A stretch of DNA of 64,000 nucleotides from Candidatus Shapirobacteria bacterium. Its GTDB lineage: Bacteria > Patescibacteriota > Microgenomatia > UBA12405. Shown here piece after piece: positions 4,150-47,878 of the stretch. A program made the translations under genes and the position numbers. Numbering within the stretch: position 1 is the first letter of the stretch; every line of letters starts with the position of its first letter. The notes beneath the pieces were generated by a model. The model worked only from the letters and a program-made list of their open reading frames with translations. It ran no database searches and was not told the origin of the DNA. The stretch lies in NCBI GenBank assembly GCA_018062705.1, contig JAGORQ010000003.1, positions 2,270-66,269 of the forward strand, read 5' to 3'.

Positions 4150-4593
4150 TCATTTTTTAAACTCCTCTACAATCTTCTTAAACTCCCCCACCTCTTTAAT
4201 ATCCAAATAAATCGTCGCAAACCGGATATACGCCACCGGGTCAGTTTTTTTCAAAATATCCATCACCAACTTCCCAATTTCTTTAGAAGGGATTTCCACA
4301 CTCTTCCAGTTAAGAAGCTTCATTTCTATTTCATCAATCAATTTTTGTCGTTCATCTGCCGTCACCCGCCACAAAGCCCTCTCAAAACATCTCTCTAGTT
4401 TTTCTCGTTGATAATCTTCAACTGATCCATCCTTTTTGACCACCTTCAATTCAATACTGCCCACCTTTTCATAGGTTGTGAACCGCTTGGCACACTTGAC
4501 ACACTCCCTTCGACGCCTAGTGGCCTTGCCTTCCATCGCATCCCGCGACTCAAGGACGTTGCTTTCATCAAAACCGCAATAAGGACATAACAT
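4150..4593 (-). CDS. nrdR: transcriptional repressor NrdR
   Basis: MLCPYCG...Zn-ribbon plus ATP-cone sequence; upstream of nrdJ. Confidence 0.9.
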   Translation of the reverse strand: MLCPYCGFDESNVLESRDAMEGKATRRRRECVKCAKRFTTYEKVGSIELKVVKKDGSVEDYQREKLERCFERALWRVTADERQKLIDEIEMKLLNWKSVEIPSKEIGKLVMDILKKTDPVAYIRFATIYLDIKEVGEFKKIVEEFKK

Positions 4594-23368: not shown

Positions 23369-24414
23369 ACCAACTCATTTTTTCCATCCGCCTTCAGTTT
23401 ATCCACAATCTCCCCCACCCTACCAGTTTGATCTTTTTTACAAATTAAAATTGCATCATCCGTTTCTACTACAACCAAATCCTCGACCCCAACTAACGCC
23501 ACATATTTTTTCGACCTCACATAATTATTTTTTGCTTGAATTTCTATTCCGTTTTTTAATTCGTAATTATTAATTAATAATTCGTAATTAATTAAAGATT
23601 CCCAAGTTCCAAAATCAATCCACTCAAAAGGCAGTTCCACCATTATTCCGTTACCATCACGGTGAACTTTCTGGGTCAATTCTTCCTGCATTCCCTTTGG
23701 CATATCTCTAAAATTCAAGTCCACATCACCACCATTTACCACTTTCATTAGAGGCTCATACCAGTCCATCCGATATTTCTGGTACATTTTTAAATAATTG
23801 TTTGGCGTCATGGTTGTGTGATTGCTGTGAATCATCAATTCATCCGTCCCCATATATTTTTGCAATTTATCTTCTTCTGTCCGATCAATAAAATCTGCTA
23901 CTTCATAAACATTTACTCCATTTTCATTACTCAACAATTTCCCCTTAACCAAATAATCCACACCACGAACGACCCTATCCGGTTTAATACACCCAGTAAC
24001 ATACTTATTTGTCGATAGAGCAAATTTATTCAATACCTCCGCCATATCAAACAGTCTTTCCACCGGTTTTCTTAAATCATCAGCCTGTATCAACATAAAC
24101 GGTTCATCTCCGTAGCCTTTTCTAGCTAAAAGTGCCGCCGTTAAACCAATTGCCGGACCAGTGTTACGTACCTCAGGCTCTAACAGAATATTGTCCCTGC
24201 TAATTTCTGATACTTGTCCTAGTGCCAACTCTGCTTGCAATGGGTTTGTCTGCAAAAAGATATCATTAGCTTCAAACTTTTTACGCAAATCCTCCCAATT
24301 TATCTGGAATAGTGACTTTCCCTTAATAAGTGGCAAAAAATGTTTTGGTAAAGACTGCCGACTTTCCGGCCACATTTTAGTGCCCACACCTCCACAAATT
24401 ATTACCATCTTCAT
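23365..24414 (-). CDS. nucleotidyltransferase, mannose-1-phosphate guanylyltransferase-like
   Basis: MKMVIICGGVGTKMWPESRQSLPKHFLPL N-terminus typical of ManC/GMP family; in-frame heptamer insert YELLINNYEL. Confidence 0.65.
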   Translation of the reverse strand: MKMVIICGGVGTKMWPESRQSLPKHFLPLIKGKSLFQINWEDLRKKFEANDIFLQTNPLQAELALGQVSEISRDNILLEPEVRNTGPAIGLTAALLARKGYGDEPFMLIQADDLRKPVERLFDMAEVLNKFALSTNKYVTGCIKPDRVVRGVDYLVKGKLLSNENGVNVYEVADFIDRTEEDKLQKYMGTDELMIHSNHTTMTPNNYLKMYQKYRMDWYEPLMKVVNGGDVDLNFRDMPKGMQEELTQKVHRDGNGIMVELPFEWIDFGTWESLINYELLINNYELKNGIEIQAKNNYVRSKKYVALVGVEDLVVVETDDAILICKKDQTGRVGEIVDKLKADGKNELV

Positions 24415-24445: not shown

Positions 24446-24727
24446 TCAAATTGAACCAAGTTCTTTTTTTACAATATCTGCCAGATAGACTTTTATCAAA
24501 GATTGGTATGGCACATCTTTCTTGTTGGCTATCATCTTTAAATCAGAAATAAGCGAAGTAGGAAACCTAATCAGCACAGACTTTGTCGAAAACTTTAGGT
24601 TTGGCAAAGATGGGTTTACTATTACCTTCTTTAAATCAACAAAATCAAGAAAACTATTTTTAGCCCAGAATTCCCTTTCTTGATCCTCATCTTTAAATAT
24701 TGGTATTTTTTTTATTTTATTTTTCAT
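24446..24727 (-). CDS. BrnA-family antitoxin (second copy)
   Basis: Paralog of 17884-18159. Confidence 0.75.
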   Translation of the reverse strand: MKNKIKKIPIFKDEDQEREFWAKNSFLDFVDLKKVIVNPSLPNLKFSTKSVLIRFPTSLISDLKMIANKKDVPYQSLIKVYLADIVKKELGSI

Positions 24728-25013
24728 ATTTTTTATAAAACATTTTTTCTCTTTTATTTTGATCTCTAGCCGAAATTATTCTTATTTTATTGTGCCTAAT
24801 AGTATAGATCACAACCAACAGTCGGCCCTTGGATGTTTTTCCATAAACTCCTTCCCGAATCTCACTTTTTGAATGTTTGTCATCTGCAAACATCAACAAT
24901 GGAACTATTTTAAAAACTTCCTCTGCCTCATCCCAAGTTACCCCATGAGATAAGTTGTTTTTACTTTGATTTCCCAAATCCCACTCAAAGCCTTCGGTTT
25001 TGGTTAGCTCCAT
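24717..25013 (-). CDS. BrnT-family toxin (second copy)
   Basis: FEWDLGN...AEEVF...IRIISARD; paralog of 18146-18439. Confidence 0.75.
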   Translation of the reverse strand: MELTKTEGFEWDLGNQSKNNLSHGVTWDEAEEVFKIVPLLMFADDKHSKSEIREGVYGKTSKGRLLVVIYTIRHNKIRIISARDQNKREKMFYKKYEK

Positions 25014-25068
25014 ATTTTTAAAGTGTATACAATGATAGTATACAAATTATTATTTGTCAATACTAATT

Positions 25069-26079
25069 TTACGAACTTGAAGAACTTTTTAACTTGATGA
25101 ACTTATTTATATTCTCCACCGTAGTCCGAATAATTCTCTCAATCGCCTCTTTAGTATTAAACGCATTGTGGGGTGTAAACACCACATCGTCTCGATCGCG
25201 TAGCAAATGGTAGCTTAACACCTCCTGCAAATCATCTTTGGATGGCTCTCGGCTAGTCACCATCGCCACATTTTCTAGCTTATCTTCTTCTTCAGTCACA
25301 TCTAGTCCTGCCCCCCACAAAATTTTATTATTCAGCGCCCAAATAATTGCCTCCGTCTCCACTACCGCCCCACGTGAGGTATTAATCAGGATTGATCCCG
25401 GCTTCATCAATTTAATATTTTTTCGATTAATCAAATGGTGTGTCTCTTTGCAGGCAGGAACATGAATAGTTAGCACATCCGATTTTTTTAGACACTCTTC
25501 CAAACCAACATAATCAAACTTCAACTTCTTCGCCAACGCCTTGTCATGATGCTGTTCCACACCTAGCACTTTCATCCCAAAAGCCCTCGCCATCTTCACC
25601 ACATTTTGACCAATTCTACCCACTCCTACTACCCCCAAAGTCCGTCCAACTAGATCAATTCCGGTAAGCCCTTCCGGGCTAAACTCACCATTTTCCACCG
25701 ACTGATGTGCCGGCACAATTCTTTTGGCCACCGAGAGCATTAATGCCATTGTGTATTCCGCCACTGTTGATGAGCCATAAGCTGGTACGTTGGCCACCAC
25801 AATTTTTCGCCGATTACATTCTTTACAATCAACATTATCAATTCCGGTTGACCTCGCCGCCACCATTTTCAAGTTTGGCAACTTATCCAAAGTTTTTTTA
25901 TCCGCCATCGAGTAAATAAACACTGACACCACTTCGTATCTTTTTGCCAATTCAATATTATCTTGCAACTCACCTTCAAAAATTCCTACCCCTTCAGCCT
26001 CAAGCTCTACAATCTCTCTTTCTATAATCGGTCTTTCCCAACTTTTCACCCCAAAAAACCCTACTTTAAGATTGTTCAT
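25069..26079 (-). CDS. D-isomer-specific 2-hydroxyacid dehydrogenase
   Basis: NAD-binding GVVGVGRIGQNV motif and catalytic-domain layout. Confidence 0.75.
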   Translation of the reverse strand: MNNLKVGFFGVKSWERPIIEREIVELEAEGVGIFEGELQDNIELAKRYEVVSVFIYSMADKKTLDKLPNLKMVAARSTGIDNVDCKECNRRKIVVANVPAYGSSTVAEYTMALMLSVAKRIVPAHQSVENGEFSPEGLTGIDLVGRTLGVVGVGRIGQNVVKMARAFGMKVLGVEQHHDKALAKKLKFDYVGLEECLKKSDVLTIHVPACKETHHLINRKNIKLMKPGSILINTSRGAVVETEAIIWALNNKILWGAGLDVTEEEDKLENVAMVTSREPSKDDLQEVLSYHLLRDRDDVVFTPHNAFNTKEAIERIIRTTVENINKFIKLKSSSSS

Positions 26080-26102
26080 ACTTCATTCTAGCGCAAATAA
26101 CA

Positions 26103-26690
26103 CTATATTTCTAAACACACCTGTGGCTTGAAATGAGAATTTGGATATTCCGACACTCTCAAGCACATCGAATTTTTTAAGATACAATAGGCCACATATT
26201 GAACATCAACATATGTTTTATACCTTCCAGCATTTCCCGAAATAGATAATAGACAGTAAGCCAGCCACTCACCCAGCTCATTTTCGTCGAGCAACCGCTC
26301 AGTTCCAATAAAGTGATAAGAATTATCAGTCTCTACAAAAACTCCCCTACCAAATTTTGGCACCATAAGTTTTTTCCATACCGTAGATATTTTTTTTAAA
26401 TTTTTTTCTGATTTTTTTATAGAAAAATCCATCATCGGAATATGCCTTATGTTCCTGTTAATTACCACTTTTGATTCAATGCCAATATTTCTATTTTTCT
26501 GCAAATGAGAAATAATAAAATCAATTTTGCCCAGCTTATCTACACCAATATGGTGAATAACATCTCCAATCGCTGGTAATGTTCCTGGTGGCATTCCCGG
26601 ATATACGTACTCTCTGAGATCTACACTTTCAACGTCTTTATTATTAAGTACTATTTTTTTTAAGATATCCAAAGTGCTACTACCTAGCAT
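26103..26690 (-). CDS. hypothetical protein
   Basis: ORF only. Confidence 0.4.
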   Translation of the reverse strand: MLGSSTLDILKKIVLNNKDVESVDLREYVYPGMPPGTLPAIGDVIHHIGVDKLGKIDFIISHLQKNRNIGIESKVVINRNIRHIPMMDFSIKKSEKNLKKISTVWKKLMVPKFGRGVFVETDNSYHFIGTERLLDENELGEWLAYCLLSISGNAGRYKTYVDVQYVAYCILKNSMCLRVSEYPNSHFKPQVCLEI

Positions 26691-26702
26691 GGCACTATTT
26701 TA

Positions 26703-26998
26703 CACCAAACATCTTTTTTCCTGTCTTTACGGATTACGTATTACGGTTTACGGATTACGTCTTTTTGACACGTTGACCCACTAGTATCCGACATGCTTTA
26801 CCACCAAACATCTTTTTTCCTTTTTTTCGGTCATTAGTAATTAGTCATTAGTAATTAGTAATTTTGTTCCATTGACCCACAAGTATCCGACATGCTTTGT
26901 CCCCAAACATCTTTTTTCCTGTCTTTTCCTCATTTGTCATTAGACATTAGTCATTTGTCATTTTGTTCCATTGACCCACTAGTATCCCTTATGCTTTA
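26703..26998. repeat. three tandem about 99-bp repeats in divergent intergenic region; conserved flanks with variable heptamer-repeat cores
   Basis: Units 26703-26800, 26801-26899, 26900-26998 share CAAACATCTTTTTTCCT and TTGACCCACTAGTATCCGACATGCTTT. Confidence 0.8.
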
Positions 26999-27043
26999 AT
27001 GAATAAGAGTTAATCATTAGAAAGATACAAAAGGAGATACCCT

Positions 27044-27301
27044 ATGAACGATCAAACAGTCCCACAAGATAAAGTAGTGGAACAAAAAGCCTCTCCCAAA
27101 AAGATCAATGGTGTCAGTATCGACAACCTCCCTGATCTTTTAACTGTGGCTGAAGTGGCCGACCTTCTCCGTGTGTCCAAGCTCACCATCAAACGCTGGG
27201 GTAAGCGAGGTAAACTCCCCGCCATCCGCATCAATGCTCGTGGTGACCGACGCTACCGCAAAGAAGCTGTTCTCTGGCTACTCGGTATCCAAAGCGAATA
27301 A
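27044..27301 (+). CDS. excisionase/MerR-family HTH DNA-binding protein
   Basis: LLTVAEVADLLRVSKLTIKRWGKRGKLPAIRI resembles excisionase-family HTH. Confidence 0.6.
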   Translation: MNDQTVPQDKVVEQKASPKKINGVSIDNLPDLLTVAEVADLLRVSKLTIKRWGKRGKLPAIRINARGDRRYRKEAVLWLLGIQSE

Positions 27302-27358
27302 CCAAAATCGCTTTCCTGCCCCGGAAAGCAATTTTGGTATATCAAACAATCACTTAAG

Positions 27359-28279
27359 TTAAACTTGTAGTAAGTTTCGCAACCCTGCCACTCTTTCCTC
27401 ATCCAAATGCCAAGTGTCCTTTATTGCCTGATAATACCCCTCTGTTATTATTTCTTGATAGTCAGCGTCAAAACCACCAACCTTTTTGTCCACCATTGGA
27501 ATTTCATAGCACGGTATTGCCATTCGTAGTACATCCATTCCATCTGTCAATCTAGTTGGCCCTCCATTTTCTATTTTCATGCCGGGCAAATCAATGATCA
27601 TAAAGCTAAATGTATTTGTCCACTTATCCCAAAGCAAATTTATATAATCACCAAAACTTACTCCGGACAACTTTTGCCACTCACGATTTGCAGAGATTAT
27701 TTCAAAAGCCTTATTAACTTCTTTACCGTCCCACCCTGATTCTTTTAAAATATTCTTCAAAGTCTCGCCGTTATCTTTAGCAAAAATATCAGCCGTTACT
27801 ACTGCCGAGCCCCACTTTTCCCCCTCAATTGCAGTCAGTGTCGATTTACCCTGCTCCGACCTACTTGACCCTATTGTCAACATGGCTGGACCCTTGATAT
27901 AAGAATATTTCTCCATTATCTCAGCCAAATCCACCTCAGTATTCATAGCTAAATTAAAAATAAAAATTGGTGGTAAGTTTGTTCGTGCTAAAATTTTCAA
28001 CCTCTCTTTTTTTATCGGATCCAAATCAACCATCACTGCTTTATCCTTATACCCACTTCCCTCCAACCATTTATCCCAACCATCCTCCCTTCCTTCTGGA
28101 ATAAATAATCCCATCCACGTCCCCTGATCATTTTTACCAGCAAACCTTACTAATCTGACCGTCTCCTTTTTCCCACTTTTTAGTTCAATATTACCCAATT
28201 CAATAAACTCCAAATTTTCATTTAATTTATCCTTTGGCGCTGTCATATCAACAGTCGCTTTTAAATCCATTGCTACCAT
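27359..28279 (-). CDS. hypothetical protein; possible divergent SIMIBI-type NTPase
   Basis: GSSRSEQGKST (Walker-A-like) and FMIIDLPG (hhhhDxPG Walker-B-like); weak. Confidence 0.4.
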   Translation of the reverse strand: MVAMDLKATVDMTAPKDKLNENLEFIELGNIELKSGKKETVRLVRFAGKNDQGTWMGLFIPEGREDGWDKWLEGSGYKDKAVMVDLDPIKKERLKILARTNLPPIFIFNLAMNTEVDLAEIMEKYSYIKGPAMLTIGSSRSEQGKSTLTAIEGEKWGSAVVTADIFAKDNGETLKNILKESGWDGKEVNKAFEIISANREWQKLSGVSFGDYINLLWDKWTNTFSFMIIDLPGMKIENGGPTRLTDGMDVLRMAIPCYEIPMVDKKVGGFDADYQEIITEGYYQAIKDTWHLDEERVAGLRNLLQV

Positions 28280-28280
28280 A

Positions 28281-29225
28281 TTATTTTTTAGTCAACTTAA
28301 AACCAGTCTTCCAAATAGTCTCAATTTTGTAAACTTTCATCTTTGACGACAATCGCCTCATGGTTTTATTAATTGCCTGATCAGAAAAATCAGTAAAATT
28401 TTCGCTCCCCCATTTTATGCCTGCTACTTTTTCCCGAGGTAAACACCCATTATTTTGCAACATTGCAGTCAATATATCTTTTTCCACCCTAGCCAGCTTC
28501 TCTCCCCTATTACCATCTTCACATATCGTCAAATCGTTCTCAATTTTAATACTTGTTGATAACCAAATATCACTAAGTAGTTTACGGAGTATTTCAGATT
28601 TTACTTGTCCCTTATCAACAATTTTTAATTTTTCCAAATAACTTGTCGATGAATTCTTAATTACCTCTATCATCGGTCGGCATATCGATTGCAACGTAGT
28701 GTCTTCTAGTAGTTCTTTTATACTCACACCGTTATCTTTTAGACACAGATACTTTACCAATCGACTAATACCACCGCTTAATTTGTAGACATCATCACGA
28801 CAATTTTTTTTAAATTCACTAACTAACAACTGAGTACTCGTTTCGTCAAACGCACCATGCCAATAATATTCATATATCCGACCAGATAAAAGTGAGCTTT
28901 TAAACTCTTCACTGTCTAGTACCCCGGGATCATCAATTACCATAATCATCTTCTGTTCAGACCCCGCTATCCTCAAGTAATCATCAACCGTCTTTAGAAC
29001 TAAATTATTTCCCACAAAACTCATTAAAACAATATTGAAATCCCCCAATTCCTCCCCTTCTTTCACTAGATAGTTTGTATCACGATTTTTTTCAACATAT
29101 TTATTCAACCTAAAAGTTAACCCACAACCAGGAAAAGTGATTATTGCCCCATTTGTTTTTGCTTTTTTTTGAGCATCCAGCCATTCAGCCAATCTGCTAT
29201 AAGAATCATTATTTTTCGTGCTCAC
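28281..29225 (-). CDS. winged-helix (OmpR/PhoB trans_reg_C-like) DNA-binding protein with uncharacterised N-terminal domain
   Basis: C-terminal LTICEDGNRGEKLARVEKDILTAML...KIETIWKTGFKL matches trans_reg_C pattern; N-terminus has MIMVIDDPG. Confidence 0.5.
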   Translation of the reverse strand: MSTKNNDSYSRLAEWLDAQKKAKTNGAIITFPGCGLTFRLNKYVEKNRDTNYLVKEGEELGDFNIVLMSFVGNNLVLKTVDDYLRIAGSEQKMIMVIDDPGVLDSEEFKSSLLSGRIYEYYWHGAFDETSTQLLVSEFKKNCRDDVYKLSGGISRLVKYLCLKDNGVSIKELLEDTTLQSICRPMIEVIKNSSTSYLEKLKIVDKGQVKSEILRKLLSDIWLSTSIKIENDLTICEDGNRGEKLARVEKDILTAMLQNNGCLPREKVAGIKWGSENFTDFSDQAINKTMRRLSSKMKVYKIETIWKTGFKLTKK

Positions 29226-29439
29226 AATTTACTATAGCATATTCAAATCGGACAAAACTGTCCGAATTCTATCCATCTTTTGTCATGTATATAACTCATT
29301 ATTATAAGATAATAATCTTAACTTAATTGGAACTACCAATCAAGTTAGTCCCCCATCGGGGCAGATGGAAATCATCACTGCGATGAATCTTCCGTCAGCA
29401 CTTTAAAAATTCGGGCTATATAAAAAAGGAGAAAAAGCC

Positions 29440-29946
29440 ATGATTACTTTCGACATTGTTACCGAATCACTATATATTGCAATGGAAGCCTTGTTTGGAA
29501 TCAGTATTGGATTAGATATTTGTTTTGTTGGCTTTATGATACTAGTCTGGTTTGATGAAAAAAAGATCCGTCTACCAAAAATCGGGGAGTGGAAAACATT
29601 TTGCTACATCACCTTGATTCTTGGTGGGATAGTCTTTCTTTTTGGGTTTTTTCTGAACCTCAGTATCTTAAACAGGGAACAACACGACCAACAGATTAGT
29701 CAAATATGTGTACCCGCCATCCTTGGCGATAGTTACATTATCAATGATACAGAAATTATCATTGGTACTGCATATCGACTTGATGACCGGCCCACAAGAT
29801 GGGGACGTGTGAACTACACTTACGAAGAGACCACGATCTTCATTCAAGGAACACCAGTCGAAAATTTTCAAGGATACAGAATCATCAAGGACAACCAACT
29901 AAAAGAATACCTCTGTTCACCACAAGCCATCGAAACAATATATTGA
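29440..29946 (+). CDS. hypothetical membrane protein
   Basis: Two N-terminal TM helices. Confidence 0.4.
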   Translation: MITFDIVTESLYIAMEALFGISIGLDICFVGFMILVWFDEKKIRLPKIGEWKTFCYITLILGGIVFLFGFFLNLSILNREQHDQQISQICVPAILGDSYIINDTEIIIGTAYRLDDRPTRWGRVNYTYEETTIFIQGTPVENFQGYRIIKDNQLKEYLCSPQAIETIY

Positions 29947-30075
29947 CCACAACTAAATAGCCCGAAGCGGCGCAACTATTCCTAATTGGACTCAGGCTAT
30001 TGCCTGAGTCCAACCCAAGGTTTTAGTTGCGTCGTATTTTTTTTAAATTATTAATTATTAATTAAATATAAAATT

Positions 30076-30546
30076 ATGAAACATATTGATAATAGTGAAC
30101 CTCGCATTATAGATGACCTAGTCCATTTAGCCCAAGTCGCCAAAAAAGTCCTCAGGGATCAGATACCTCTATATGGCGTGGTTAAACAACGTGAAGAATT
30201 GCGCCAAGAAATAAATGCCCAAGCCAGGGTAGTTGGCAATAGTCCCAAGACCTATCGTTCGGTTGAAGATTATACAAACCGAACGGAAGAATGGTATCTC
30301 GAAGGGGGCAGTGCCTTTAACGAAAATCCATATTGGCCTGTTCTTGGAAAATTCATGATGTTTATGAATGATATAAGCGAATCTACTATTTTACCAATTG
30401 CCTTGGTTGCTACTAGTAAACCTACCGTCGAGGAAGCTATCGCTCTAACTAGTTATCATCTAATTGTCCACGGAATAGCTGGATTAAATCATCAACGAGA
30501 GTTAGAAGCTGTTAGAAAAGAAACTGCAAAATATACCATAAAATAA
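30076..30546 (+). CDS. hypothetical protein
   Basis: ORF only. Confidence 0.4.
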   Translation: MKHIDNSEPRIIDDLVHLAQVAKKVLRDQIPLYGVVKQREELRQEINAQARVVGNSPKTYRSVEDYTNRTEEWYLEGGSAFNENPYWPVLGKFMMFMNDISESTILPIALVATSKPTVEEAIALTSYHLIVHGIAGLNHQRELEAVRKETAKYTIK

Positions 30547-32100: not shown

Positions 32101-33058
32101 TCACCCTCCCCCGCGGTGTTCTTTTAACCAGTCCCCGTTTCATCAAATACGGTTCATACACATCCATAATTGTCCCCACATCTTCCGTTAGGGCCGCTGC
32201 AATATTTTCCACCCCCACTGGTCCACCACCATACTGATTTTTGACTACATCCAAATACCGCCTATCTGCATCAGACAAACCCATTTCGTCCACCCCCAAT
32301 TTATCCAAAGCCAGTTTTGATTCTTTCAAAGTTATTTGTCCATCATTGTTTATCTGGGCATAATCCCTGACTCTCCTTAATAATCTGTTGGCAATTCGTG
32401 GCGTCCCCCGCGCTCTCTTAGCAATTTCCTCAGATGCCTCTTTTTCAATTTTAGTTTTCAATACTTCGGCTGTCCGACTGACAATTTGTGCCAGATTATC
32501 CTCTCCATAAAAATCAATTTGCTGAACTATTCCAAACCGGTCTCTCATTGGGCTACTAATCAAACCAATTCGAGTAGTGGCTCCCACAATTGTAAATTTT
32601 GGTAATTTAAGTCTGACCGAGCGAGCACTTGGGCCTTTACCTAGAACAATATCCAGCGCAAAATCCTCCATCGCACTATAGAGGGTTTCTTCGACAATTT
32701 TATTGAGTCGGTGCACCTCATCAATAAACAAAATATCACCTTTTTTGAGTCCAGTTAATATGGAAGCCAAATCCCCTGCCCGCGTTAATGCCGGACCAGA
32801 GGTGATTCGAATATTTGTTCCCATTTCGGCTGCCAAAAGCATGGCCAAAGTTGTTTTCCCTAGTCCTGGCGGACCATAAAACAAAATGTGGTCTAACTGT
32901 TCTTGTCTCTCTCTCGCTGCCCGAATAAAAATATCTAGCTGGTCTTTCAATTTCTTCTGACCAATAAATTCCGACAACTTCTTTGGTCGCAAAGACAGCT
33001 CTAATTCTTTGTCTTCTAATTTTCTATTTGGATCTAAATTTTCAGTTGTTTTATTCAT
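32093..33058 (-). CDS. ruvB: Holliday junction branch migration ATPase RuvB
   Basis: [11 protein letters not shown] Walker A and full RuvB collinearity. Confidence 0.95.
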
Positions 33059-33083
33059 ACATCTTACTTCTTACATCTTAAAT

Positions 33084-33653
33084 CTATTTCCTATTTTTCA
33101 AAGCATATTCTAACTTCTCTTCTGTGGTTACCAGATCCGTCGGCACACCCTTAACCATTTGTTCAATCTCTTTTTTCTCAAATCCTAACTGTTGCAAACT
33201 CGCCGTTAAGTCATCGTCAAGCAACGGTCTTTCGTCTTTTAAATTTAACTCCCCTAGTCCACCAATTTTTGATTTTAAATCCACAATAATTCTCTGCGCC
33301 GTTTTCAATCCAATCCCCTTAATCTTTTTGAAAAAATCCACATCCGCATCACCTATTGCCTTCATAATATCCAGCGAACTTTTCTCGGCCACAATTCCCG
33401 CCGCTGTCTTCGGTCCCACTCCCGACACCGTAATCAACATTTTAAATAAATCCAATTCCTCCACAGTTTTAAACCCAAATAAAGTAATTGCACTCTCATT
33501 CATCGACGTATAAATAAACAACTTCAACTCTTTCCCTACTGTGAACTCAGCACTTTGCACTTTGCACTGTATCTCATATCCCACTCCACCCACCTCCACC
33601 TCAATTCCCCCATTCCAAATTCGGGAAACAATTCCCCTCAAGCTACTGATCAT
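33084..33653 (-). CDS. ruvA: Holliday junction DNA helicase RuvA
   Basis: MISSLRGIV... OB and HhH domains. Confidence 0.9.
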   Translation of the reverse strand: MISSLRGIVSRIWNGGIEVEVGGVGYEIQCKVQSAEFTVGKELKLFIYTSMNESAITLFGFKTVEELDLFKMLITVSGVGPKTAAGIVAEKSSLDIMKAIGDADVDFFKKIKGIGLKTAQRIIVDLKSKIGGLGELNLKDERPLLDDDLTASLQQLGFEKKEIEQMVKGVPTDLVTTEEKLEYALKNRK

Positions 33654-33717: not shown

Positions 33718-34740
33718 ATGACGTCATCAAATCTCCCTACAGTCACCTGGGAAACTAGTATTGAACACGAAGCTCTCCGAATCATTTATTACCTAATGCG
33801 CCTCCCCGAACGCGAGCTCCAAAATCGTGGCTTTTTAGTACTTCCGTCAAGCAACCCCCAAAATTCAAATCGCACAATAGTTGTTCCTGATCTCCCCTAT
33901 CATCTAGTTTCTAGAATCTGGTTTCTAGTTTCTAAATTAATCCCCACCACCCCCATGACCGCCCCATCTTCACTCACTGATCAAATTGTTGAATTACTCA
34001 AACCCACTTACCACCCACCCAATCTCCAAATATTTCAAACCGATTTTGGCACCATCAAAGAATCTTTTTTTAAATCACTCTTTTTCCTCCTCCCAAATTC
34101 TAAGAACCGACTCCAAAAAATAAACATCATCGTCACCCATTCAGGCACCTGTTCTCAATTTAACATGCTGACACCAACCAAAACCACTCTCACTGTCTAC
34201 CTTCGTTCCGATTCCAAAATTACCGATCTTATCCAGGTTATTGTCTTATCTCTAATTCGTCACGACCTCCAACATATTGAACACAGAAGCTGGGAAGAAA
34301 TCCAAACCGTGGCCGATTTTTTGCTCACTCACACTTCACTCAATGAATCAATAAAACCCTTCAACCACCTCACCATGATGCCTCGGCTCCAACAAAAACA
34401 ATCAGGCAAATTGATCAAGGCTTCTCAAAATTACCAATCTAAACTCGGTATCCCCACCCAAAACAATTGGCGAATATCGAGCAATGAAATTTTTTATCAA
34501 AGCATCAAAATAGATCAATTGACCCCTCGCCAAAGCAAATTACTAAAATTACTTATCAAAAAATATGGCGAGGTGGTCAGCAATGATCAAATTGCCGATG
34601 CTCTTTGGCCTAATGGTGAAAACTATTCGCTCTGGGCCATTGTCAAAGAAATCGCCCGCATCCGTGCCTGTATTGTCAGCTCTGGCCTCCCCGGCTCCCT
34701 CCTCCAATCCCATCGAAAACTGGGGTATAGCTTGCGTTAA
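33718..34740 (+). CDS. winged-helix (trans_reg_C-like) DNA-binding protein, no receiver domain
   Basis: C-terminal LTPRQSKLLKLLIKKYGEVVSNDQIADALW...RKLGYSL; in-frame heptamer insert HLVSRIWFLVSKL. Confidence 0.5.
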   Translation: MTSSNLPTVTWETSIEHEALRIIYYLMRLPERELQNRGFLVLPSSNPQNSNRTIVVPDLPYHLVSRIWFLVSKLIPTTPMTAPSSLTDQIVELLKPTYHPPNLQIFQTDFGTIKESFFKSLFFLLPNSKNRLQKINIIVTHSGTCSQFNMLTPTKTTLTVYLRSDSKITDLIQVIVLSLIRHDLQHIEHRSWEEIQTVADFLLTHTSLNESIKPFNHLTMMPRLQQKQSGKLIKASQNYQSKLGIPTQNNWRISSNEIFYQSIKIDQLTPRQSKLLKLLIKKYGEVVSNDQIADALWPNGENYSLWAIVKEIARIRACIVSSGLPGSLLQSHRKLGYSLR

Positions 34741-37386: not shown

Positions 37387-37431
37387 ATATACTCTAGGAT
37401 TAAATACATTAATTTAATGATATTTATCGCT

Positions 37432-37486
37432 AAATTAGTAATTAGTAATTAGTAATTGGTAATTAGTAATTAGTAATTAGTAATTA
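37432..37486. repeat. (TAATTAG)n heptanucleotide tandem array, about 8 units
   Basis: aaattagtaattagtaattagtaattggtaattagtaattagtaattagtaatt. Confidence 0.9.
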
Positions 37487-37507
37487 GTAATTAAAGTATA
37501 ATCAAGT

Positions 37508-38593
37508 ATGTCCCTCTACGACGACCTACGCTTAAAACTCCCCCAACTCGACATTCGCCAAAACTCTCCCCTCGCCCCCTACACCACTCTTCGCATTGGC
37601 GGTCCTGCTGAATGTTTGGTTGTGGTCACCAAACAATCCGAACTTTTTTCCATTCTAAAATTTATTTCCCAACAAATTGTAGATTGTAAATTGAAGATTG
37701 AAGATTTTCGTATTCTCGGCAAAGGCTCCGATCTGGTAATTTCCGACTCTGGCCTACCCGGTCTAACCATTATCAATCGTGCCTCCCAGATCCATATTCA
37801 CCCCAAAGTTGAAATGATAAATGGTTCAACGAAAAATGATAAATTTTCCCCAATCAGCACTCAGCGGAATGAAAATGAACCAGAAAAATATCTTGATTTT
37901 GGGAAAATCGATTATGACGAATCAGGACTACCCACTCAACTAGTTACTCTCCAAGCCGGTACACCACTTCCCTTTGCCATCAACCAATTACTCAACGAAG
38001 GTCTTACTGGGCTCCAATGGTTTGCCTATATTCCCGGTACTGTCGGCGGTGCTGTTTATCAAAACATTCATGGTGGCAAATACCATTTTTCCGATTATAT
38101 CGACTCTATAAAAACTTTTAATCTCAAAACTGGTAAAACTCAACTTTTCAAAAAAACCGATTTAAATTGGCACTACGAAACCAGTTTTTTTCAATCAAAC
38201 TACCATTTAATAATACTTTCTGCCACACTTCGACTTTTTCGGGGCGACGCCAACCTGGCTCGACAAGTAACCACCGCTTGGATCGCTCAAAAAACCAAGG
38301 TTCAACCCATGAATTCCGCCGGCTCAGTTTTTGCCAACCCGTCACCCGAAATTTGTCAAAAAATTTGGGGCGAACAAAAATCAGCCGGTTGGATCATCGA
38401 CCACGAGTTGGGCTGGAAGGGTAAAGCTATCGGCGGTGCTCAAATTAGCCCGCTTCACTCCAATTTTATTGTCAACACTGGTACCGCCACCGCAAAAGAC
38501 TACCACTCCCTAGTCAAACAAATCATCGCCGAAGTTAAAACTCGTTTTGACTTTGAACTTATCCCTGAAATAAAGTTTTTAGGACAAATTTAG
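37508..38593 (+). CDS. murB: UDP-N-acetylenolpyruvoylglucosamine reductase
   Basis: FAD-binding N-terminus and MurB C-terminal collinearity; in-frame heptamer insert IVDCKLKIEDF. Confidence 0.8.
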   Translation: MSLYDDLRLKLPQLDIRQNSPLAPYTTLRIGGPAECLVVVTKQSELFSILKFISQQIVDCKLKIEDFRILGKGSDLVISDSGLPGLTIINRASQIHIHPKVEMINGSTKNDKFSPISTQRNENEPEKYLDFGKIDYDESGLPTQLVTLQAGTPLPFAINQLLNEGLTGLQWFAYIPGTVGGAVYQNIHGGKYHFSDYIDSIKTFNLKTGKTQLFKKTDLNWHYETSFFQSNYHLIILSATLRLFRGDANLARQVTTAWIAQKTKVQPMNSAGSVFANPSPEICQKIWGEQKSAGWIIDHELGWKGKAIGGAQISPLHSNFIVNTGTATAKDYHSLVKQIIAEVKTRFDFELIPEIKFLGQI

Positions 38594-40778: not shown

Positions 40779-40886
40779 AAAAATATTCTCCTACCAAATC
40801 ATTCTATCAAAAAGAACCACCTCCACTATCACTTTCCTTCATTATTAATTATTAATTATTAATTAGTAATTAGGTATAATATCTTT

Positions 40887-42089
40887 ATGCACAACCGATC
40901 TGATAGGCGAAGCCTATTCTTCGTTCTTTCCGTCTTTTCTTTAGTTATTATCTCCACCTATTTTGTTATCCTCTTCGCCCGAGGCTATCGTCTCGAATTC
41001 AAAAAAGACGGCCCCAGTCTCCAGGTTACCGGCATTCTTTCTTTTACTTCCAAGCCCAAAGGTGGTTCTGTTTACCTAAACGATCGCTTAATCACCGCCA
41101 CCGATGACACCCTTAACCTACCCCCCGGTAGTTACACCGTCAAAATTACTAAGGATGGCTATACCACTTGGCAAAAAACCTACCAAGTCAAAAAGGAGGT
41201 CGTCTACCAAACCGATGCCGAACTCTTCCGCTCCGCCCCAGAGCTTCGACCACTTACACTCAGTGGTGCCATCAACCCTGTCTTGAGCCCAGATGGTTCA
41301 AAGGTTATTTTTGCGGTAGCCTCTGCCTCTGCCACAAAAGACAACGGACTCTATCTACTTGAAACTTCCGACAATCTCATCCCCCTTGCCAAAACCACCA
41401 CCCGCCAAATTGCACCCAACTTTACTGGAACCGATTGGGCAAAGGCCACATTCACTTTTTCACCAGATTCGCGCCAAGTAGTAGCCACTTTCAAAAACCA
41501 ACTTAATTATCTACTAAATATAGATACGACAATTACTGAGAAAAATCTAACTGATATCACGAGCCAGCTACCTCAAATTAACAAAAGTTGGTCTCAAGAC
41601 GAACTTCAAATAATAAAAAGTCGATTAAACCGACTTCCTCCAGAAATTAGCACCCTGGTCGCTACCGATTCTGCCCGAGACATTGCCATCAACCAAAACG
41701 ACGACAAAGTTTTTTATCTTGCCTCCAAAGATGGAACAATCGACTCACAAACCACTCCACCACCAGCCCAAAGCTCCCAAACCCAAGACCGTCATGTGGC
41801 CAAAAACAATTTTTATGTCTACGACATCAAAGATGACACCAATTTTGCCATCGGCTCAAGTGAAACAGTTCGTAATTTAAGCTGGCTTCCCTACACCAAC
41901 AACCTTATTTACGTTGAAGACAACAGTATAAAAATAGTTGACTACGACAACACCAATAAAAATGTGATTTACGCAGGAAAGTTTAGTGCCGACTTAGTCT
42001 TTCCTTGGTCTGATGGTAGCCGAATAATCACCCTTACCTCTGCCTATACAGGAGCCACAAACAATCTCTATTCGATTAGTTTAAAGTAA
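40887..42089 (+). CDS. PEGA-domain membrane protein with beta-propeller-like C-terminus
   Basis: N-terminal TM, PEGA-like GSVYLNDRLI..PGSYTVKITKDGY, TolB-like SPDGSKV repeats. Confidence 0.45.
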   Translation: MHNRSDRRSLFFVLSVFSLVIISTYFVILFARGYRLEFKKDGPSLQVTGILSFTSKPKGGSVYLNDRLITATDDTLNLPPGSYTVKITKDGYTTWQKTYQVKKEVVYQTDAELFRSAPELRPLTLSGAINPVLSPDGSKVIFAVASASATKDNGLYLLETSDNLIPLAKTTTRQIAPNFTGTDWAKATFTFSPDSRQVVATFKNQLNYLLNIDTTITEKNLTDITSQLPQINKSWSQDELQIIKSRLNRLPPEISTLVATDSARDIAINQNDDKVFYLASKDGTIDSQTTPPPAQSSQTQDRHVAKNNFYVYDIKDDTNFAIGSSETVRNLSWLPYTNNLIYVEDNSIKIVDYDNTNKNVIYAGKFSADLVFPWSDGSRIITLTSAYTGATNNLYSISLK

Positions 42090-42899: not shown

Positions 42900-42976
42900 C
42901 GGGGATTGGCGCAATTGGCTAGCGCGCACGGTTCGGGATCGTGAGGTTGCTGGTTCGAATCCAGTATCCCCGACCA
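42900..42976 (+). tRNA. tRNA-Pro (anticodon CGG), CCA encoded
   Basis: Manual cloverleaf: acceptor CGGGGAT/ATCCCCG, D-stem GCGC/GCGC, anticodon loop TTCGGGA, T-arm GCTGG-TTCGAAT-CCAGT. Confidence 0.85.
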
Positions 42977-43100
42977 GTCGGATACTGGATGAGAAGTTTA
43001 TCCTGAGCGAAGTCGAAGGAAATCCAGTATCCCCGACCAGTCGGATACTGGATGAGAAGTTTATCCTGAGCGAAGTCGAAGGAAATCCAGTATCCCCGAC
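42961..43100 (+). repeat. 2.2 tandem copies of a 63-bp unit beginning with the tRNA-Pro 3' end (CCAGTATCCCCGACCA...)
   Basis: Units 42961-43023, 43024-43086, partial 43087-43100 identical. Confidence 0.9.
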
Positions 43101-43254
43101 AAAAATAATTAATAATTAACAATTAATAATTACTAATTAAGAACAACTGTCCATTCTCTGATGATTGAGCAATCCAATCATCACAAGTTTTTTGTATTGA
43201 TAGTTTTCAACTACTAATTATTAATTCGTAATTAGTAATTAGTAGTTAATGTTC

Positions 43255-45289: not shown

Positions 45290-47878
45290 CTATCTAACTA
45301 CAAAGTTGACCATCCTGCCTGGCACATAAATTTCCTTAACCACCTCTTTTCCCTCCAACCACTGCGTCATCTTCGGCAACTCCTTTGCCAGTTTTATTAT
45401 TTCTTCTTGGCTTTTAACTCGTAACTCGTCACTGTTAACTGATAACTGTTCTCTGACTTTTCCATTCACCGCCACCATAATGGTAACTGACTCCTCCGCC
45501 AGATACTTCTCATCCGCCACCGGCCACTCTTGATCATGAATCGATGAAAAAATCTCGTCATTCCCGCGAAAGCGGGAATCCATTCTTTGCCACATTTCTT
45601 CCGCCGTGTACGGTGCCATTGGTGCCATTAATTTCAAAAAAGTCTCTAAATCATTTCTCGAAACCATTTCTTTGTTATCTTCAAAATCATTTAATAATTT
45701 CATCAATTTTGCCACTACGGTATTGTATCCAAAACTTGCCATATCTTCGGTAATACTTTTTATGGCTTTATTAATGATTATCAGTAGTTCTTTATTACTG
45801 TCAGCAGACTTATTATTTAATTGCTCATTAGTAATTCGTAATTCGTAATTCGTAATTGATTTTTCCACTCTATCCAAAAATCGTTTCACCCCCATGAGAG
45901 TCTTCTCATTCCACGCCATCGTTCCATCAAATGGTCCCATAAACATCAAATACATCCTCACTACATCGACCCCGTACTTATCCGCTACCACCTCTGGCAC
46001 CACCACGTTCCCCTTCGACTTACTCATCCGATTATTGTCTGGTCCCAAAATTACCCCATGGGAAATTCTTTTAAAATATGGCTCGGGTAACTCTTTGGGT
46101 ACTGCGCCAATGTCGTGCAGAAACTGGTAAATAAACCTCGAATACAAAAGATGCAGTGTGTTATGTTCATCGCCACCTATGTAGACATCCACCGGACCCC
46201 AATATTTAATCATCTTTTGGGATGCCAGCTCTTTATTGTTGTGCGGATCCATATATCTTAAAAAGTACCAGTCACTCCCCGCCCAATTTGGCATCGTATC
46301 AGTTTCCCGCACTGCATCACCGTCACAAACTGGACATTTGCAATTCACAAACTCTGGAATTTTTGACAATGGTGACTTGCCATCATCCGTCGGCTCGTAA
46401 GCCTCCACCTCTGGCAACACAATCGGCAACTGTTCTTCCGGCACCGGAATCCACCCCACATTTTTCAATAAATTATTTTTTTCGTCTTCATTTTGGATTT
46501 TAGAATTTAGAATTTGGGATTTTTGATTTTCTGCACATTTATTACAGAAAATCATGGGTATCGGCTCACCCCAATAATGCTGTCTAGAAAAAATCCAATC
46601 TCTTAAGTGATATGACACCACTCTCTTCCCCCAACCCTTTTCTTCAAAATAATCCATCGTCTTCTGCATCGCCTTCGTAAAGTCCATTCCATTTAAAAAA
46701 TCAGAATTCACCATTACACCCTTATCACCCGAATGAACTTGAAAACATTCTTTTTCAACATCCCTCTCTTCTCCATCAACTCCATCTACCACTTTAATAA
46801 TTGGGATTCCAAACTTTTTGGCAAAATCCCAATCTCTCTGGTCATGACCTGGACAACCTTGAACTGCGCCAGTCCCAAAAGTCGCCAACACAAAATCAGT
46901 TATCCAAATTGGAATCTCTTTACCATCAACATGATTTATTGCATAAAGCCCAGAAAACACTCCTGTCTTTTCTTTTCCTAATTCAGTTCTTTCAATCTCG
47001 CTCTTTCGCCTTGCTACTGATATATACTTTTTTATTTCTTCAATCTGTTTCTGATCAACACCAAACTTCCCCGACACGATATCCTGCACAAACTTGTGTT
47101 CTGGTGCCACTACCAAAAAAGTCGCCCCAAAATTTACCGGTGTTGTTGTAAAAATAGCCAGTTTCTCACTCGTGCCCTTAACTTGGAAATCGATATTTAT
47201 CCCCTCTTTTCTCCCAATCCAGTTTATTTGTGCTTGTTTCACTTTCTCAATAAAATCCGTCTTCGCAAGTCCCGACACCAATTTATCTGCATAATCAGTT
47301 ATTTTTACTATCCACTGGCTGATGTTTCTTCTCGATACTTCAGAATGACACCGCTCGCACTTCCCATCGACAACTTCTTCATTGGCCAAACCAATTTTAC
47401 AACTTGGACACCAGTTAATCGGCATCTCCTCTTTGTAGGCCAAACCCTTTTTAAATAATTGAACAAAAATCCACTGTGTCCATTTATAATAGTCTGGGCT
47501 AGTCGTATTTACCTCCCTCTCCCAATCAAACGAAAACGCCAACCGTTTCATCTGACTTCTAAACATATCGGTATTTTCCTTGGTCACTTCTTGCGGTTTC
47601 CGCTTCATCTTTATCGCATAGTTTTCCGTTGGCAAACCAAAGGCATCCCAACCCATCGGAAACATCACCTCATACCCCTGCATTCGCTTAAATCTGGCAT
47701 AGACATCTCCACCAGTAAACGAAAAAGCATGACCTACATGGAGACCCGATCCTGAGGGATAAGGGAACTCATTTAGCACATAAAACTTCCCTTTGCTAGC
47801 TACTCTTTTACTATTTTTTTTGCCCCACTCAGTAATCCATTTTTTCTCGATTTCTAAAAACTTTTTATCTTCGTTCAT
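45290..47878 (-). CDS. leuS: leucine--tRNA ligase
   Basis: HVGHAFSF (HIGH) and KMSKSKGN motifs, editing domain; three in-frame heptamer inserts and one in-frame family-B hairpin (SRFRGNDE). Confidence 0.95.
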   Translation of the reverse strand: MNEDKKFLEIEKKWITEWGKKNSKRVASKGKFYVLNEFPYPSGSGLHVGHAFSFTGGDVYARFKRMQGYEVMFPMGWDAFGLPTENYAIKMKRKPQEVTKENTDMFRSQMKRLAFSFDWEREVNTTSPDYYKWTQWIFVQLFKKGLAYKEEMPINWCPSCKIGLANEEVVDGKCERCHSEVSRRNISQWIVKITDYADKLVSGLAKTDFIEKVKQAQINWIGRKEGINIDFQVKGTSEKLAIFTTTPVNFGATFLVVAPEHKFVQDIVSGKFGVDQKQIEEIKKYISVARRKSEIERTELGKEKTGVFSGLYAINHVDGKEIPIWITDFVLATFGTGAVQGCPGHDQRDWDFAKKFGIPIIKVVDGVDGEERDVEKECFQVHSGDKGVMVNSDFLNGMDFTKAMQKTMDYFEEKGWGKRVVSYHLRDWIFSRQHYWGEPIPMIFCNKCAENQKSQILNSKIQNEDEKNNLLKNVGWIPVPEEQLPIVLPEVEAYEPTDDGKSPLSKIPEFVNCKCPVCDGDAVRETDTMPNWAGSDWYFLRYMDPHNNKELASQKMIKYWGPVDVYIGGDEHNTLHLLYSRFIYQFLHDIGAVPKELPEPYFKRISHGVILGPDNNRMSKSKGNVVVPEVVADKYGVDVVRMYLMFMGPFDGTMAWNEKTLMGVKRFLDRVEKSITNYELRITNEQLNNKSADSNKELLIIINKAIKSITEDMASFGYNTVVAKLMKLLNDFEDNKEMVSRNDLETFLKLMAPMAPYTAEEMWQRMDSRFRGNDEIFSSIHDQEWPVADEKYLAEESVTIMVAVNGKVREQLSVNSDELRVKSQEEIIKLAKELPKMTQWLEGKEVVKEIYVPGRMVNFVVR

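Follow-up and report, generated by a model that had tools for sequence, protein, structure and literature searches.

A triplicated divergent promoter, a core BldC-type gene and a putative accessory regulatory module at one locus of a Candidatus Shapirobacteria genome

Results

Organization of the locus

The locus described here (positions 26103-29946) lies in a 64,000-nucleotide (nt) stretch of DNA, hereafter the window, from Candidatus Shapirobacteria, a member of the Microgenomates within the candidate phyla radiation (CPR). It contains three tandem 99-bp repeat units in a divergent promoter, an AEP-like gene on one side of this promoter and a gene for a small helix-turn-helix (HTH) protein on the other, followed by two minus-strand genes, here called P4 and P3, which form an operon convergent with the HTH gene. 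All four open reading frames named in a preliminary description of this DNA are present as stated there. Upstream of P4, a predicted operator is followed by a divergent transcript, which would carry a structured leader RNA ahead of a membrane protein gene (Table 1). We propose, with a probability of about 0.6, that the locus combines three independent parts, namely, a triplicated promoter, a core gene of the BldC type and an accessory P4-P3 regulatory module. Orthologous loci used for comparison were retrieved via their proteins and include 30 other HTH loci (L001-L003 and L009-L037).

The 99-bp triple repeat

The repeat and its sub-arrays were called with Tandem Repeats Finder (TRF), which reports a 99-bp period, 3.0 copies and 78% matches (score, 275). 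Three tandem units had been described as starting at 26703; TRF recovers them in a register 4 bp further left, at 26699. The units were also said to share conserved ends around a different heptamer core in each. The three-unit alignment (mean column identity, 84%) and the TRF sub-arrays agree, the arms being near-identical and the cores divergent. The placement of the repeat in a divergent promoter is likewise supported by the alignment of conserved promoters. On its left, the duplicated unit starts within the predicted minus-strand -10 hexamer, TAAAAT (26702-26697), of the AEP-like gene. TAAAAT or TAGAAT followed by 6 nt and ATG also precedes the orthologous 2-hydroxyacid dehydrogenase genes, and this geometry, in the window and in the orthologues, implies leaderless transcription.

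Comparison of orthologous loci identified the 3' arm of every unit as the putative promoter of the HTH gene. In an alignment of 28 orthologous upstream regions (alignment A5), the sequence TTGAC, an 18-nt spacer ending in TG and a hexamer T-T-x-A-x-T are invariant and constantly spaced. The hexamer reads TTTAAT in most of the 28 promoters, and a 5' untranslated region (UTR) of ~45 nt is conserved downstream. Units 1 and 2 contain copies of the -35 TTGACC (26773-26778 and 26872-26877) and of the TG, followed by the defective hexamers TTTACC and TTTGTC. The unit junction falls inside the hexamer, which for this reason loses the invariant A and T, as comparison of the junction sequences TGCTTTACC and TGCTTTGTC with the intact TGCTTTAAT illustrates. 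Only the last unit retains an intact HTH -10, and only the first retains an intact minus-strand -10. On the plus strand, the end points of the duplicated segment read ATTTTA and CTTTAA, both of which contain TTTA. The simplest origin of the triplication would thus be slipped or unequal recombination at TTTA microhomology between the two -10 boxes, 99 bp apart; a microhomology-mediated tandem duplication would have occurred and then recurred once.

None of the other 30 orthologous HTH loci carries the 99-bp triplication. In L089-L091, the AEP-like gene has no tandem repeat next to it, and the triplication is missing from all other P4-P3 loci and AEP-like loci checked. It is private to this genome, and the repeat is therefore disconnected from the P4-P3 genes. 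The preliminary description had named the absence of the repeats from homologous loci among the observations that would count against its reading; they are indeed absent, and a link between the repeat and the module is given up here. The triple repeat is an ordinary, recent, lineage-specific structural variant of a divergent promoter with generic heptamer microsatellites.

Heptamer arrays

The cores of units 2 and 3 are related (CATTAGT/AATTAGT versus CATTTGT/CATTAGA), and the core of unit 1 (ATTACG) departs consistently at two positions per heptamer. Such consistent per-heptamer differences between cores are the signature of within-array homogenization. Turnover of the cores by slippage together with within-array homogenization would explain why they differ while the arms stay alike.

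By a strict criterion, the window holds 29 period-7 arrays (~40 by TRF), each ~26-43 bp long, compared with 0-2 arrays for each of the other periods from 4 to 14. Shuffled sequences contained no period-7 array, which excludes chance. Examples lie at 1279-1317, 2079-2115, 2937-2970, 4118-4154, 23557-23589, 33055-33086, 37430-37496, 45824-45861 and 46489-46523, and about one-third of the arrays in the window are in frame within conserved genes (RNR, three arrays; LeuRS, two; MurB, WecG, ComEA and an NTP-transferase). Related Microgenomates DNA (1.68 Mb) contained 164 arrays of 92 distinct heptamers, 95% of them 25-42 bp long, and a separate count in related genomes gave 113 period-7 arrays versus 2-27 for other periods. 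The non-coding ~16% of the 1.68 Mb carries ~45-63% of the arrays, the remaining 60 being in frame within genes. At the same position of the HTH promoter, L002 and L012 possess a different array (CTGTTAA type), while L003 and most loci have none. The heptamer cores at the repeat are ordinary members of this genome-wide microsatellite class and not locus-specific sites. Heptamers of the AATTACG family, translated as ITNYELR, recur in RuvA, a RuvC-like protein, LeuRS and an NTP-transferase of different genomes; in RuvA, the same position holds different heptamers in different genomes, with no net change in length.

Xanthomonas and Nostoc have an excess of simple sequence repeats (SSRs) that is specific to heptamers, with ~4 units per array, and for which polymerase slippage has been held responsible (PMC4692102). 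The arrays described here share with these heptameric SSRs (cyanobacterial short tandemly repeated repetitive [STRR] sequences, Xanthomonas GGGAATC and Nostoc GGGGAYT) the period-7 excess, the mostly ~4-5 units, the intergenic enrichment and the variation at the same site between close relatives (PMC4692102). Unlike them, they are AT-rich, not G-rich, fall into 92 types and lie in about one-third of cases in frame in conserved genes, such as those for RNR, LeuRS, RuvA and MurB. We found no description of heptamer arrays in CPR bacteria in the literature. Elsewhere in the window, a perfect 63-bp tandem repeat (42958-43100; 2.3 copies, 100% matches) adjoins heptamer arrays at 43104-43140 and 43215-43248 and a sequence resembling the start of a tRNA gene.

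The BldC-type gene

The HTH protein matches HTH_17/MerR_1 in Pfam (residues 32-83), with no further domain. It had been assigned to the excisionase family, beside genes that might belong to a degraded mobile element. The match to the TIGR01764 'excise' domain (38.1 bits versus a cut-off of 28.8) bears out the fold, which is of the excisionase/MerR type; membership in a mobile element is not borne out by synteny or by matches to BldC. In the PDB, the protein matches BldC (6amk, E = 1e-8; 6ama, E = 5e-8) with ~50% identity over the 51-54-residue winged HTH (wHTH) core, and in NCBIfam it matches HTH_BldC (E = 1.4e-11; 44 bits), short of the subfamily cut-off of 77 bits. When one genome per species was scanned, at least 410 relatives emerged; the 80 best all belong to Microgenomates-type CPR genomes. 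Identity in the wHTH core is 82-90% across Shapirobacteria, Levybacteria, Woesebacteria and Daviesbacteria. Furthermore, the gene order 2-hydroxyacid dehydrogenase (divergent), HTH gene, ruvB (convergent) is found in ~29 Shapirobacteria loci, and no integrase domain is present in the annotated HTH neighbourhoods. The fixed chromosomal synteny and the breadth of relatives rule out an excisionase of a degraded mobile element; the HTH gene is a vertically inherited BldC-family core gene of Microgenomates. Throughout Shapirobacteria, the DNA of its promoter and of the 45-nt 5' UTR is conserved as well, and the conservation of protein and promoter together suggests that this BldC-like protein may fill a global or nucleoid-associated role that is essential.

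BldC binds cooperatively to direct repeats that contain AATT and vary in number; its natural half-sites include AATT, GATT and CATT, and its protomers occupy 9 bp each, about one helical turn apart (PMC5859096). Like Streptomyces BldC (PDB 6AMA/6AMK), the HTH protein is a single-domain protein without the MerR coiled coil and effector domain, and it retains the recognition-helix arginine before the conserved Trp. Unlike BldC, it has an extra, non-conserved N-terminus of 30 residues and an Asp in place of BldC His46, and its gene is universally conserved in its CPR host. Head-to-tail multimerization on AATTNNNN(C) direct repeats is a trait of the BldC family; the repeats at the present locus have a period of 7 bp, not 9-10 bp. 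Relatives have a conserved terminator-like hairpin after the HTH gene, with compensatory stem changes (CCUUAAAGGCGGUUGG...CCAGCUGCCUUUUUUGG), in L009 (10290-10340), L010, L023, L026, L037, L002 (12445-12500) and L003 (12150-12215); the hairpin in the window differs.

The P4-P3 operon

P4 (314 aa) is identical to NCBI KBC75_01455, and its AlphaFold2 (AF2) model has a predicted local distance difference test score (pLDDT) of 86. In Foldseek searches with this model, the N-terminal two-thirds matched RuvB (E = 9e-7), Orc1/Cdc6 (2e-6), CED-4 (of the CED-4/Apaf-1 kind; 5e-5) and TnsC, the matches ranging from E 1e-6 to 1e-4, with an AAA+-type alpha/beta fold and a helical lid. The N-terminus is therefore AAA+/ORC/RuvB-like and not a CheY-like receiver. 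The Walker A lysine is missing in 15 of 15 homologues, which have PGxGx[ST] with L, F, V, G or M at the lysine position, and the Walker B acidic residues are not conserved; these two features together make P4 a pseudo-ATPase. An OmpR-type winged helix had been noted at the C-terminus. The match of P4 to Pfam Trans_reg_C is weak, and the assignment is backed by the AF2 model and by the family profile, which finds the OmpR-type DNA-binding domains of CssR (E = 3.5e-4), SaeR and others (~7e-3) in the PDB. PF00486 is the precomputed annotation for P0014 and P0015. Single-sequence PDB searches gave only a weak CssR match for P4 and nothing useful for P3.

P4 resembles Orc1/Cdc6, RuvB and STAND regulators of the MalT/AfsR class in joining an alpha/beta domain of the P-loop type to a helical lid and to a winged helix at the C-terminus. 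It differs from them in the missing Walker A lysine, in TM-scores of ~0.35, in its winged helix, which is probably of the OmpR type, and in being much smaller than STAND proteins. Unlike OmpR/PhoB, it has neither a receiver domain nor the phospho-acceptor Asp, its N-terminus is AAA+/ORC-like, and a separate P-loop NTPase gene is always attached. Other proteins of ~300 aa with a C-terminal Trans_reg_C domain and uncharacterized N-termini are encoded in the window (33718-34740), in L002 (1516-2373 and 16215-17237) and in L003 (1572-2429 and 3166-4128). The one in the window is not detectably related to P4 by sequence.

P3 is rare, with 7 matches among 1.84 billion representatives. Its Walker A- and B-like motifs had been pointed out from the sequence, and among 12 family members K145 (GK[ST]) and D230 (FMIIDLPG) are the only nearly invariant columns, which upholds the reading of the motifs; the match to known folds is weak. 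All weak structural and profile matches are to P-loop kinases or NTPases, including SIMIBI proteins, the structural matches among the latter being only HypB, FtsY, SRP54 and BcsQ, at E > 0.01. A Foldseek search of the P3 model against PDB and BFVD gave nothing below E 1e-3 except one implausible long ATPase. The P-loop reads SxxSxxGK[ST], without a signature lysine, and not KGGxxGK[ST]. A ParA/MinD partition ATPase was rejected: P3 has no deviant Walker A, no significant SIMIBI fold match and no Pfam or NCBIfam match. A zeta/PezT toxin kinase was likewise rejected (PezT, E = 0.52 by profile search). Neither P3 nor P4 matched anything significantly in PADLOC, PHROGs, NCBIfam or Pfam.

P4 is directly followed by P3 in 28 of 32 loci, the remaining context varying. 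The two genes abut, as TAA-n-ATG in the window and with 4-nt overlaps elsewhere. Neighbouring genes were given Pfam domains in some P4-P3 loci and were clustered by BLAST only in the others. BLAST clustering revealed no conserved partner beyond P3, and no integrase or partition family was present among the called neighbours in the domain-listed loci, so that the association with a mobile element proposed in the preliminary description is not supported by this survey. A seemingly recurrent 85-aa neighbour (F3) proved to be of the GIY-YIG type and unrelated to the HTH protein. The pair had been called a regulator pair, a partition-like module or a defence-like module. A regulator pair fits best, because of the probable OmpR-type winged helix, the intact Walker A and B motifs in the partner and the strict adjacency; for the other two suggestions, the domain-listed loci held no partition family and the two proteins themselves had no significant PADLOC defence match.

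Predicted operator and leader RNA

The region upstream of P4 is conserved throughout the family, even where the proteins are only 30-40% identical. A putative extended -10 (TGTGnTATAGT/TATATT) stands 5-6 nt from the start codon family-wide, which implies a leaderless transcript. Upstream of it, the family has three to four direct repeats of (T/G)GACA, spaced by ~11 bp and reaching the -35 position. In the window, the repeats are TGACA (29285-29281), GGATA (29274-29270) and GGACA (29263-29259), with an inverted GGACA on the plus strand (29250-29254), and they overlap the -35 positions of both predicted divergent promoters. The repeat triple occurs once in the 64-kb window and at the equivalent position in most P4 loci; ~1.2 Mb of HTH loci without P4 contained no GGACA-type triples, only a few low-complexity GATA matches. 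Back-to-back -10-like boxes (ATTATC/TATAAT) upstream of P4 are also conserved in the family.

Pho boxes are direct repeats with a TGTCA core that are bound by OmpR/PhoB winged helices. P4 has a probable winged helix of this type, and its upstream region has three to four pentamer repeats at ~11-bp spacing, as in pho boxes bound by PhoB/OmpR activators. The unit (T/G)GACA is the complement of the pho-box core, and the repeats extend to the -35 position of a promoter in which a -10 is the only element. By this analogy, the GGACA direct repeats are the predicted operator of P4. Further GGACA triples lie away from the P4 start in L006 (2277), L122 (468), L125 (3742) and L005 (9708); they could mark additional members of a small P4 regulon. 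In many genes, a -10-like hexamer, often preceded by TG, stands only 5-7 nt from the start codon, and a Shine-Dalgarno sequence is missing (26697-26690, 26079-26100, 29236-29223, 37497-37510 and 40872-40889 in the window; L089 and L090 upstream of AEP-like genes), a pattern that suggests that leaderless transcripts may be widespread in these genomes.

On the strand opposite P4, a leader of ~100-130 nt is found family-wide. In the window it folds into three hairpins followed by the single strand GCACUUUAAAA, with a minimum free energy (MFE) z score of -4.95. MFE folds of eight leader homologues, run independently, gave the same architecture with different helix sequences, and MAFFT with RNAalifold recovered the third helix only, with compensatory changes in 7 of 8 pairs. 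A covariance model (CM R1) was built from four sequences with a hand-specified structure and used for realignment; the window leader scores 113 bits against it. The model gave 15 matches at E < ~0.1, all in P4-recovered loci and none elsewhere, with adjacency confirmed for the stronger ones; a 16th match (L026, E = 0.78) is noise. An nhmmer search over 1.71 Mb of DNA agreed with these matches, its own hits lying only beside P4-P3. In the model-fitted alignment, which biases the counts upwards towards the structure, 89% of alignment cells pair (shuffles, 68.6%) and 24 of 27 pairs show double changes (shuffles, 13.4; none of 500 as high), and slid controls reached 0.04-0.11 versus 0.505. Rfam has no match at E <= 1 in 25000-30500 of the window and none at the leaders of L004, L007, L107 and L113, and the three-hairpin leader is a new RNA motif. 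The P4-P3 pair, the GGACA repeats and the RNA co-occur exclusively.

The leader-preceded genes are non-homologous between loci. Their products are, without exception, signal-anchored or of the lipoprotein type and combine Pro/Thr linkers with domains rich in Cys and Trp; together these features indicate fast-evolving surface proteins. The leader motif is also present at L004 9612-9700, L006 4147-4251, L122 1470-1565 and L127 619-711, and some loci have a second copy ahead of another surface-protein gene. Near the P4 locus of L004 (6641-6699, minus strand), there is a weak match to the type III hammerhead ribozyme (27.7 bits versus a gathering score of 48.5; E = 0.075).

Flanking insertions

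The AEP-like gene is present at this site only in the window genome and is missing there in relatives. Its seven homologues are solitary among housekeeping genes on CPR chromosomes, with no adjacent repeats. On the other side, compared with most relatives, ~4.7 kb is inserted between the HTH gene and ruvB, comprising P3, P4, three small genes, a Crp-like gene and a CAP-domain gene. Among ~29 Shapirobacteria loci, P4-P3 occupies the HTH/ruvB site only in the window, L001/L002 and L003, and L034 has a distant P4. It is a fair conclusion that the operon is an accessory insertion in a sub-lineage, part of an accessory island. A BrnT/BrnA (CopG) toxin-antitoxin pair is found around the same region in all three closest genomes, each time at another position (window, 24446-25013; L002, 11248-11797; L003, 5732-6287), which fits a local hot spot for small insertions.

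The plus-strand GC skew of the window (1-64000) is extreme and uniform, at -0.17 to -0.38 in 4-kb windows, with no sign change, and is still ~-0.17 where genes lie on the plus strand.

Table 1. Features of the locus, with coordinates in the window
Feature	Coordinates	Strand	Basis and remarks
AEP-like gene (PF24387)	26103-26690	-	Pfam, 1.7e-16; lineage-specific insertion between promoter and 2-hydroxyacid dehydrogenase gene
Predicted -10 TAAAAT of minus-strand gene	26697-26702	-	6 nt from ATG, leaderless; sequence and orthologue geometry
Tandem repeat, 3 x 99 bp	26699-26998	.	TRF; triplicated segment between the two -10s of the divergent promoter
Repeat units	~26699-26797, 26798-26896, 26897-26998	.	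TRF, unit alignment, conserved promoter alignment
Heptamer array, unit 1	26727-26759	.	TRF: TTACGGA, 4.7 copies; GATTACG type
Heptamer array, unit 2	26830-26865	.	TRF: ATTAGTA, 4.4 copies at 26830/26833-26863, also period 14; TAATTAG/TCATTAG type
Heptamer array, unit 3	26930-26964	.	TRF: TCATTTG, 4.9 copies at 26930-26963; TCATTTG/TCATTAG type
Predicted HTH promoter	-35 TTGACC 26972-26977; 18-nt spacer; TG 26993-26994; -10 TTTAAT 26996-27001	+	Conservation
BldC-family small MerR-like wHTH protein, 85 aa	27044-27301	+	Pfam, NCBIfam, PDB, synteny; core Microgenomates gene
Bidirectional intrinsic-terminator-like hairpin	27301-27338	.	Between convergent HTH gene and P3
P3, P-loop NTPase; operon gene 2	27359-28279	-	Motifs, model; Walker A GK[ST] K145, Walker B hhhhDxPG D230, N-terminal beta domain
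P4, ORC/Cdc6-RuvB-like AAA+ fold without Walker A lysine; operon gene 1	28281-29225	-	Model, profiles; lid, probable C-terminal OmpR-type winged helix
Predicted -10 TATAGT of P4-P3 operon	29231-29236	-	5 nt from GTG start, leaderless; conserved family-wide
Predicted P4 operator, TGACA-N6-GGATA-N6-GGACA	29250-29285	-	Direct repeats 29285 to 29259 and inverted fourth GGACA
Predicted promoter of divergent transcript	29280-29313	+	TTGTCA 29280-29285, 17 nt, TATAAG 29303-29308 / GATAAT 29308-29313; ATTATC/TATAAT conserved in family
Three-hairpin leader RNA, conserved 3' single strand GCACUUUAAAA	29314-29412	+	MFE, RNAalifold, covariance model, covariation
Leader-preceded gene, 168-aa membrane protein	29440-29946	+	Open reading frame, comparison of loci

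Discussion

The triple repeat is confined to one genome, the HTH gene is shared throughout Microgenomates and the P4-P3 operon is found at this site in a sub-lineage. Several points weigh against the assignments made above. A strict sigma-70 scan of 26600-27400 called no promoter; it misses the putative HTH promoter because the -10 has a T at position 2, and the promoter assignments in the repeat region are drawn from conservation. The -35 copies in units 1 and 2 might still serve as weak promoters or as binding sites. Plain slippage accounts neither for the recurrence of AATTACG in unrelated genes and genomes nor for the replacement of heptamers at the same position in RuvA. The match of P4 to Pfam Trans_reg_C has an E value of 0.007 and, at 16.8 bits, is under the cut-off of 26.2. 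The AF2 model of P3 has a pLDDT of 77, one of the five AF2 models scored poorly, and its best fold matches are weak (Foldseek, E = 7e-3; by profile, dephospho-CoA kinase, 0.012). Binding of P4 to the GGACA repeats is suggested by their co-occurrence and by analogy with PhoB, and the covariation counts for the leader carry the upward bias already given.

The repeat invites readings in which it has a function of its own. One is that the [A/G/C]ATT heptamer arrays of the units form a platform for head-to-tail multimers of the BldC-like protein, allowing autoregulation with an adaptive operator dosage. The HTH protein is of the BldC family, BldC half-sites on direct repeats are AATT, GATT and CATT (PMC5859096), the arrays sit directly upstream of the -35, and L002 and L012 also bear arrays at the HTH promoter. 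A BldC protomer, however, covers 9 bp, which does not fit a 7-bp period; the HTH protein has the Asp in place of His46; only the window, L001/L002 and L012 among ~31 orthologous promoters have arrays, so that they are not a conserved operator; and equivalent arrays are found genome-wide, also within essential genes. We consider such a platform unlikely. A phase-variable (contingency) promoter, in which gain or loss of 7-bp or 99-bp units switches the HTH gene, the AEP-like gene or both, would draw on the tendency of heptamer SSRs to slip, on the variation of arrays between close relatives at the same site and on the ability of 99-bp tandem units to expand and contract by recombination. The arrays lie upstream of the -35, though, where changes in unit number leave the -35/-10 spacing unaltered, they are as close to gene ends as to gene starts, and no copy-number polymorphism was seen, the one informative pair of near-identical contigs having identical arrays. 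We consider phase variation very unlikely. Least credible is the reading in which a degraded plasmid or integrated element left the repeat behind as its iteron or centromere, with the AEP-like protein and an ORC-like P4 as replication proteins or with P4-P3 as a partition pair of the TubR/TubZ or ParR/ParM kind. The AEP-like gene abuts the repeat, the architecture of P4 is Orc1/Cdc6-like, and P3 has a SIMIBI-like hhhhDxPG. In the tubC-tubR-tubZ cassette, the order is repeats, DNA-binding protein and NTPase, and the present locus resembles it, as it does TubZRC and ParMRC systems in general, in having direct repeats at an operon promoter, then a small DNA-binding adaptor and then an NTPase. Against this, the arms of the repeat correspond to a core chromosomal gene's conserved promoter, and the array is found only in the window genome and is not kept with replication or partition genes, being missing from all other P4-P3 and AEP-like loci. 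The solitary AEP-like homologues without adjacent repeats and the lack of a GC-skew switch in the window likewise led us to reject an origin or iteron, P4 has no Walker A lysine, P3 has no deviant KGG Walker A of the ParA type, and no plasmid or integrase genes are present in the domain-listed contexts. Unlike TubZRC and ParMRC, P4-P3 is chromosomal in a small-genome CPR bacterium and tied to a leader RNA and a surface-protein gene, and P3 is not actin-, tubulin- or ParA-like by any test.

The operon itself could also be a toxin-antitoxin-like or anti-phage pair, with P4 as a DNA-binding, autoregulating antitoxin or sensor and P3 as a zeta-like kinase effector. This would be in keeping with the DNA-binding gene standing first, the abutting or overlapping genes, the patchy distribution in varied contexts, the BrnT/BrnA modules that hop around the same region and the weak kinase-fold matches of P3, which include PezT. 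The PezT match is not significant, however, nor is any PADLOC, PHROG or Pfam match of P3 or P4, both proteins are large for a type II toxin-antitoxin system, and the constant linkage to a leader RNA and a surface-protein gene suits a regulator better than an autonomous cassette. We regard this alternative as improbable, and toxin-antitoxin, defence and partition readings of P4-P3 all have a low probability.

Returning to the proposal of three independent parts, P4-P3 would be a rare accessory regulatory module with its own predicted operator repeats and a new structured leader RNA. P4, a nucleotide-dead AAA+/ORC-like protein with a probable OmpR-type winged helix, would bind the GGACA repeats between its own leaderless promoter and the divergent promoter. 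A nucleotide-dependent switch would come from P3, the translationally coupled P-loop NTPase, whose Walker residues are intact. The divergent transcript would carry the three-hairpin leader ahead of the gene for the fast-evolving surface or membrane protein, the probable target of regulation; the direction of this regulation is one that we infer. Tentatively, and at somewhat less than even odds, the pair, the GGACA operator and the leader, as a new cis-regulatory RNA, may constitute an undescribed Microgenomates-specific regulatory system that controls rapidly evolving surface proteins, with P4 switched by P3.

For the repeat, these findings mean that readings as an operator array, an origin or a centromere should be set aside; it illustrates cleanly how a divergent promoter can be triplicated when its two -10 boxes share 4 bp of microhomology. 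In Microgenomates, a BldC-type protein is conserved to a very high degree, and heptamer microsatellites are abundant and extend into essential genes. The P4-P3 operon defines a compact, testable module of a pseudo-AAA+/OmpR protein, a P-loop NTPase, pho-box-like repeats, a new RNA and variable surface proteins. Very little is known of gene regulation in CPR bacteria, and this module, through its predicted operator and covarying RNA, gives experiments a concrete starting point. If the proposed regulation is true, the surface proteins so controlled would be the molecules most likely to mediate the attachment of these episymbiotic bacteria to their hosts.

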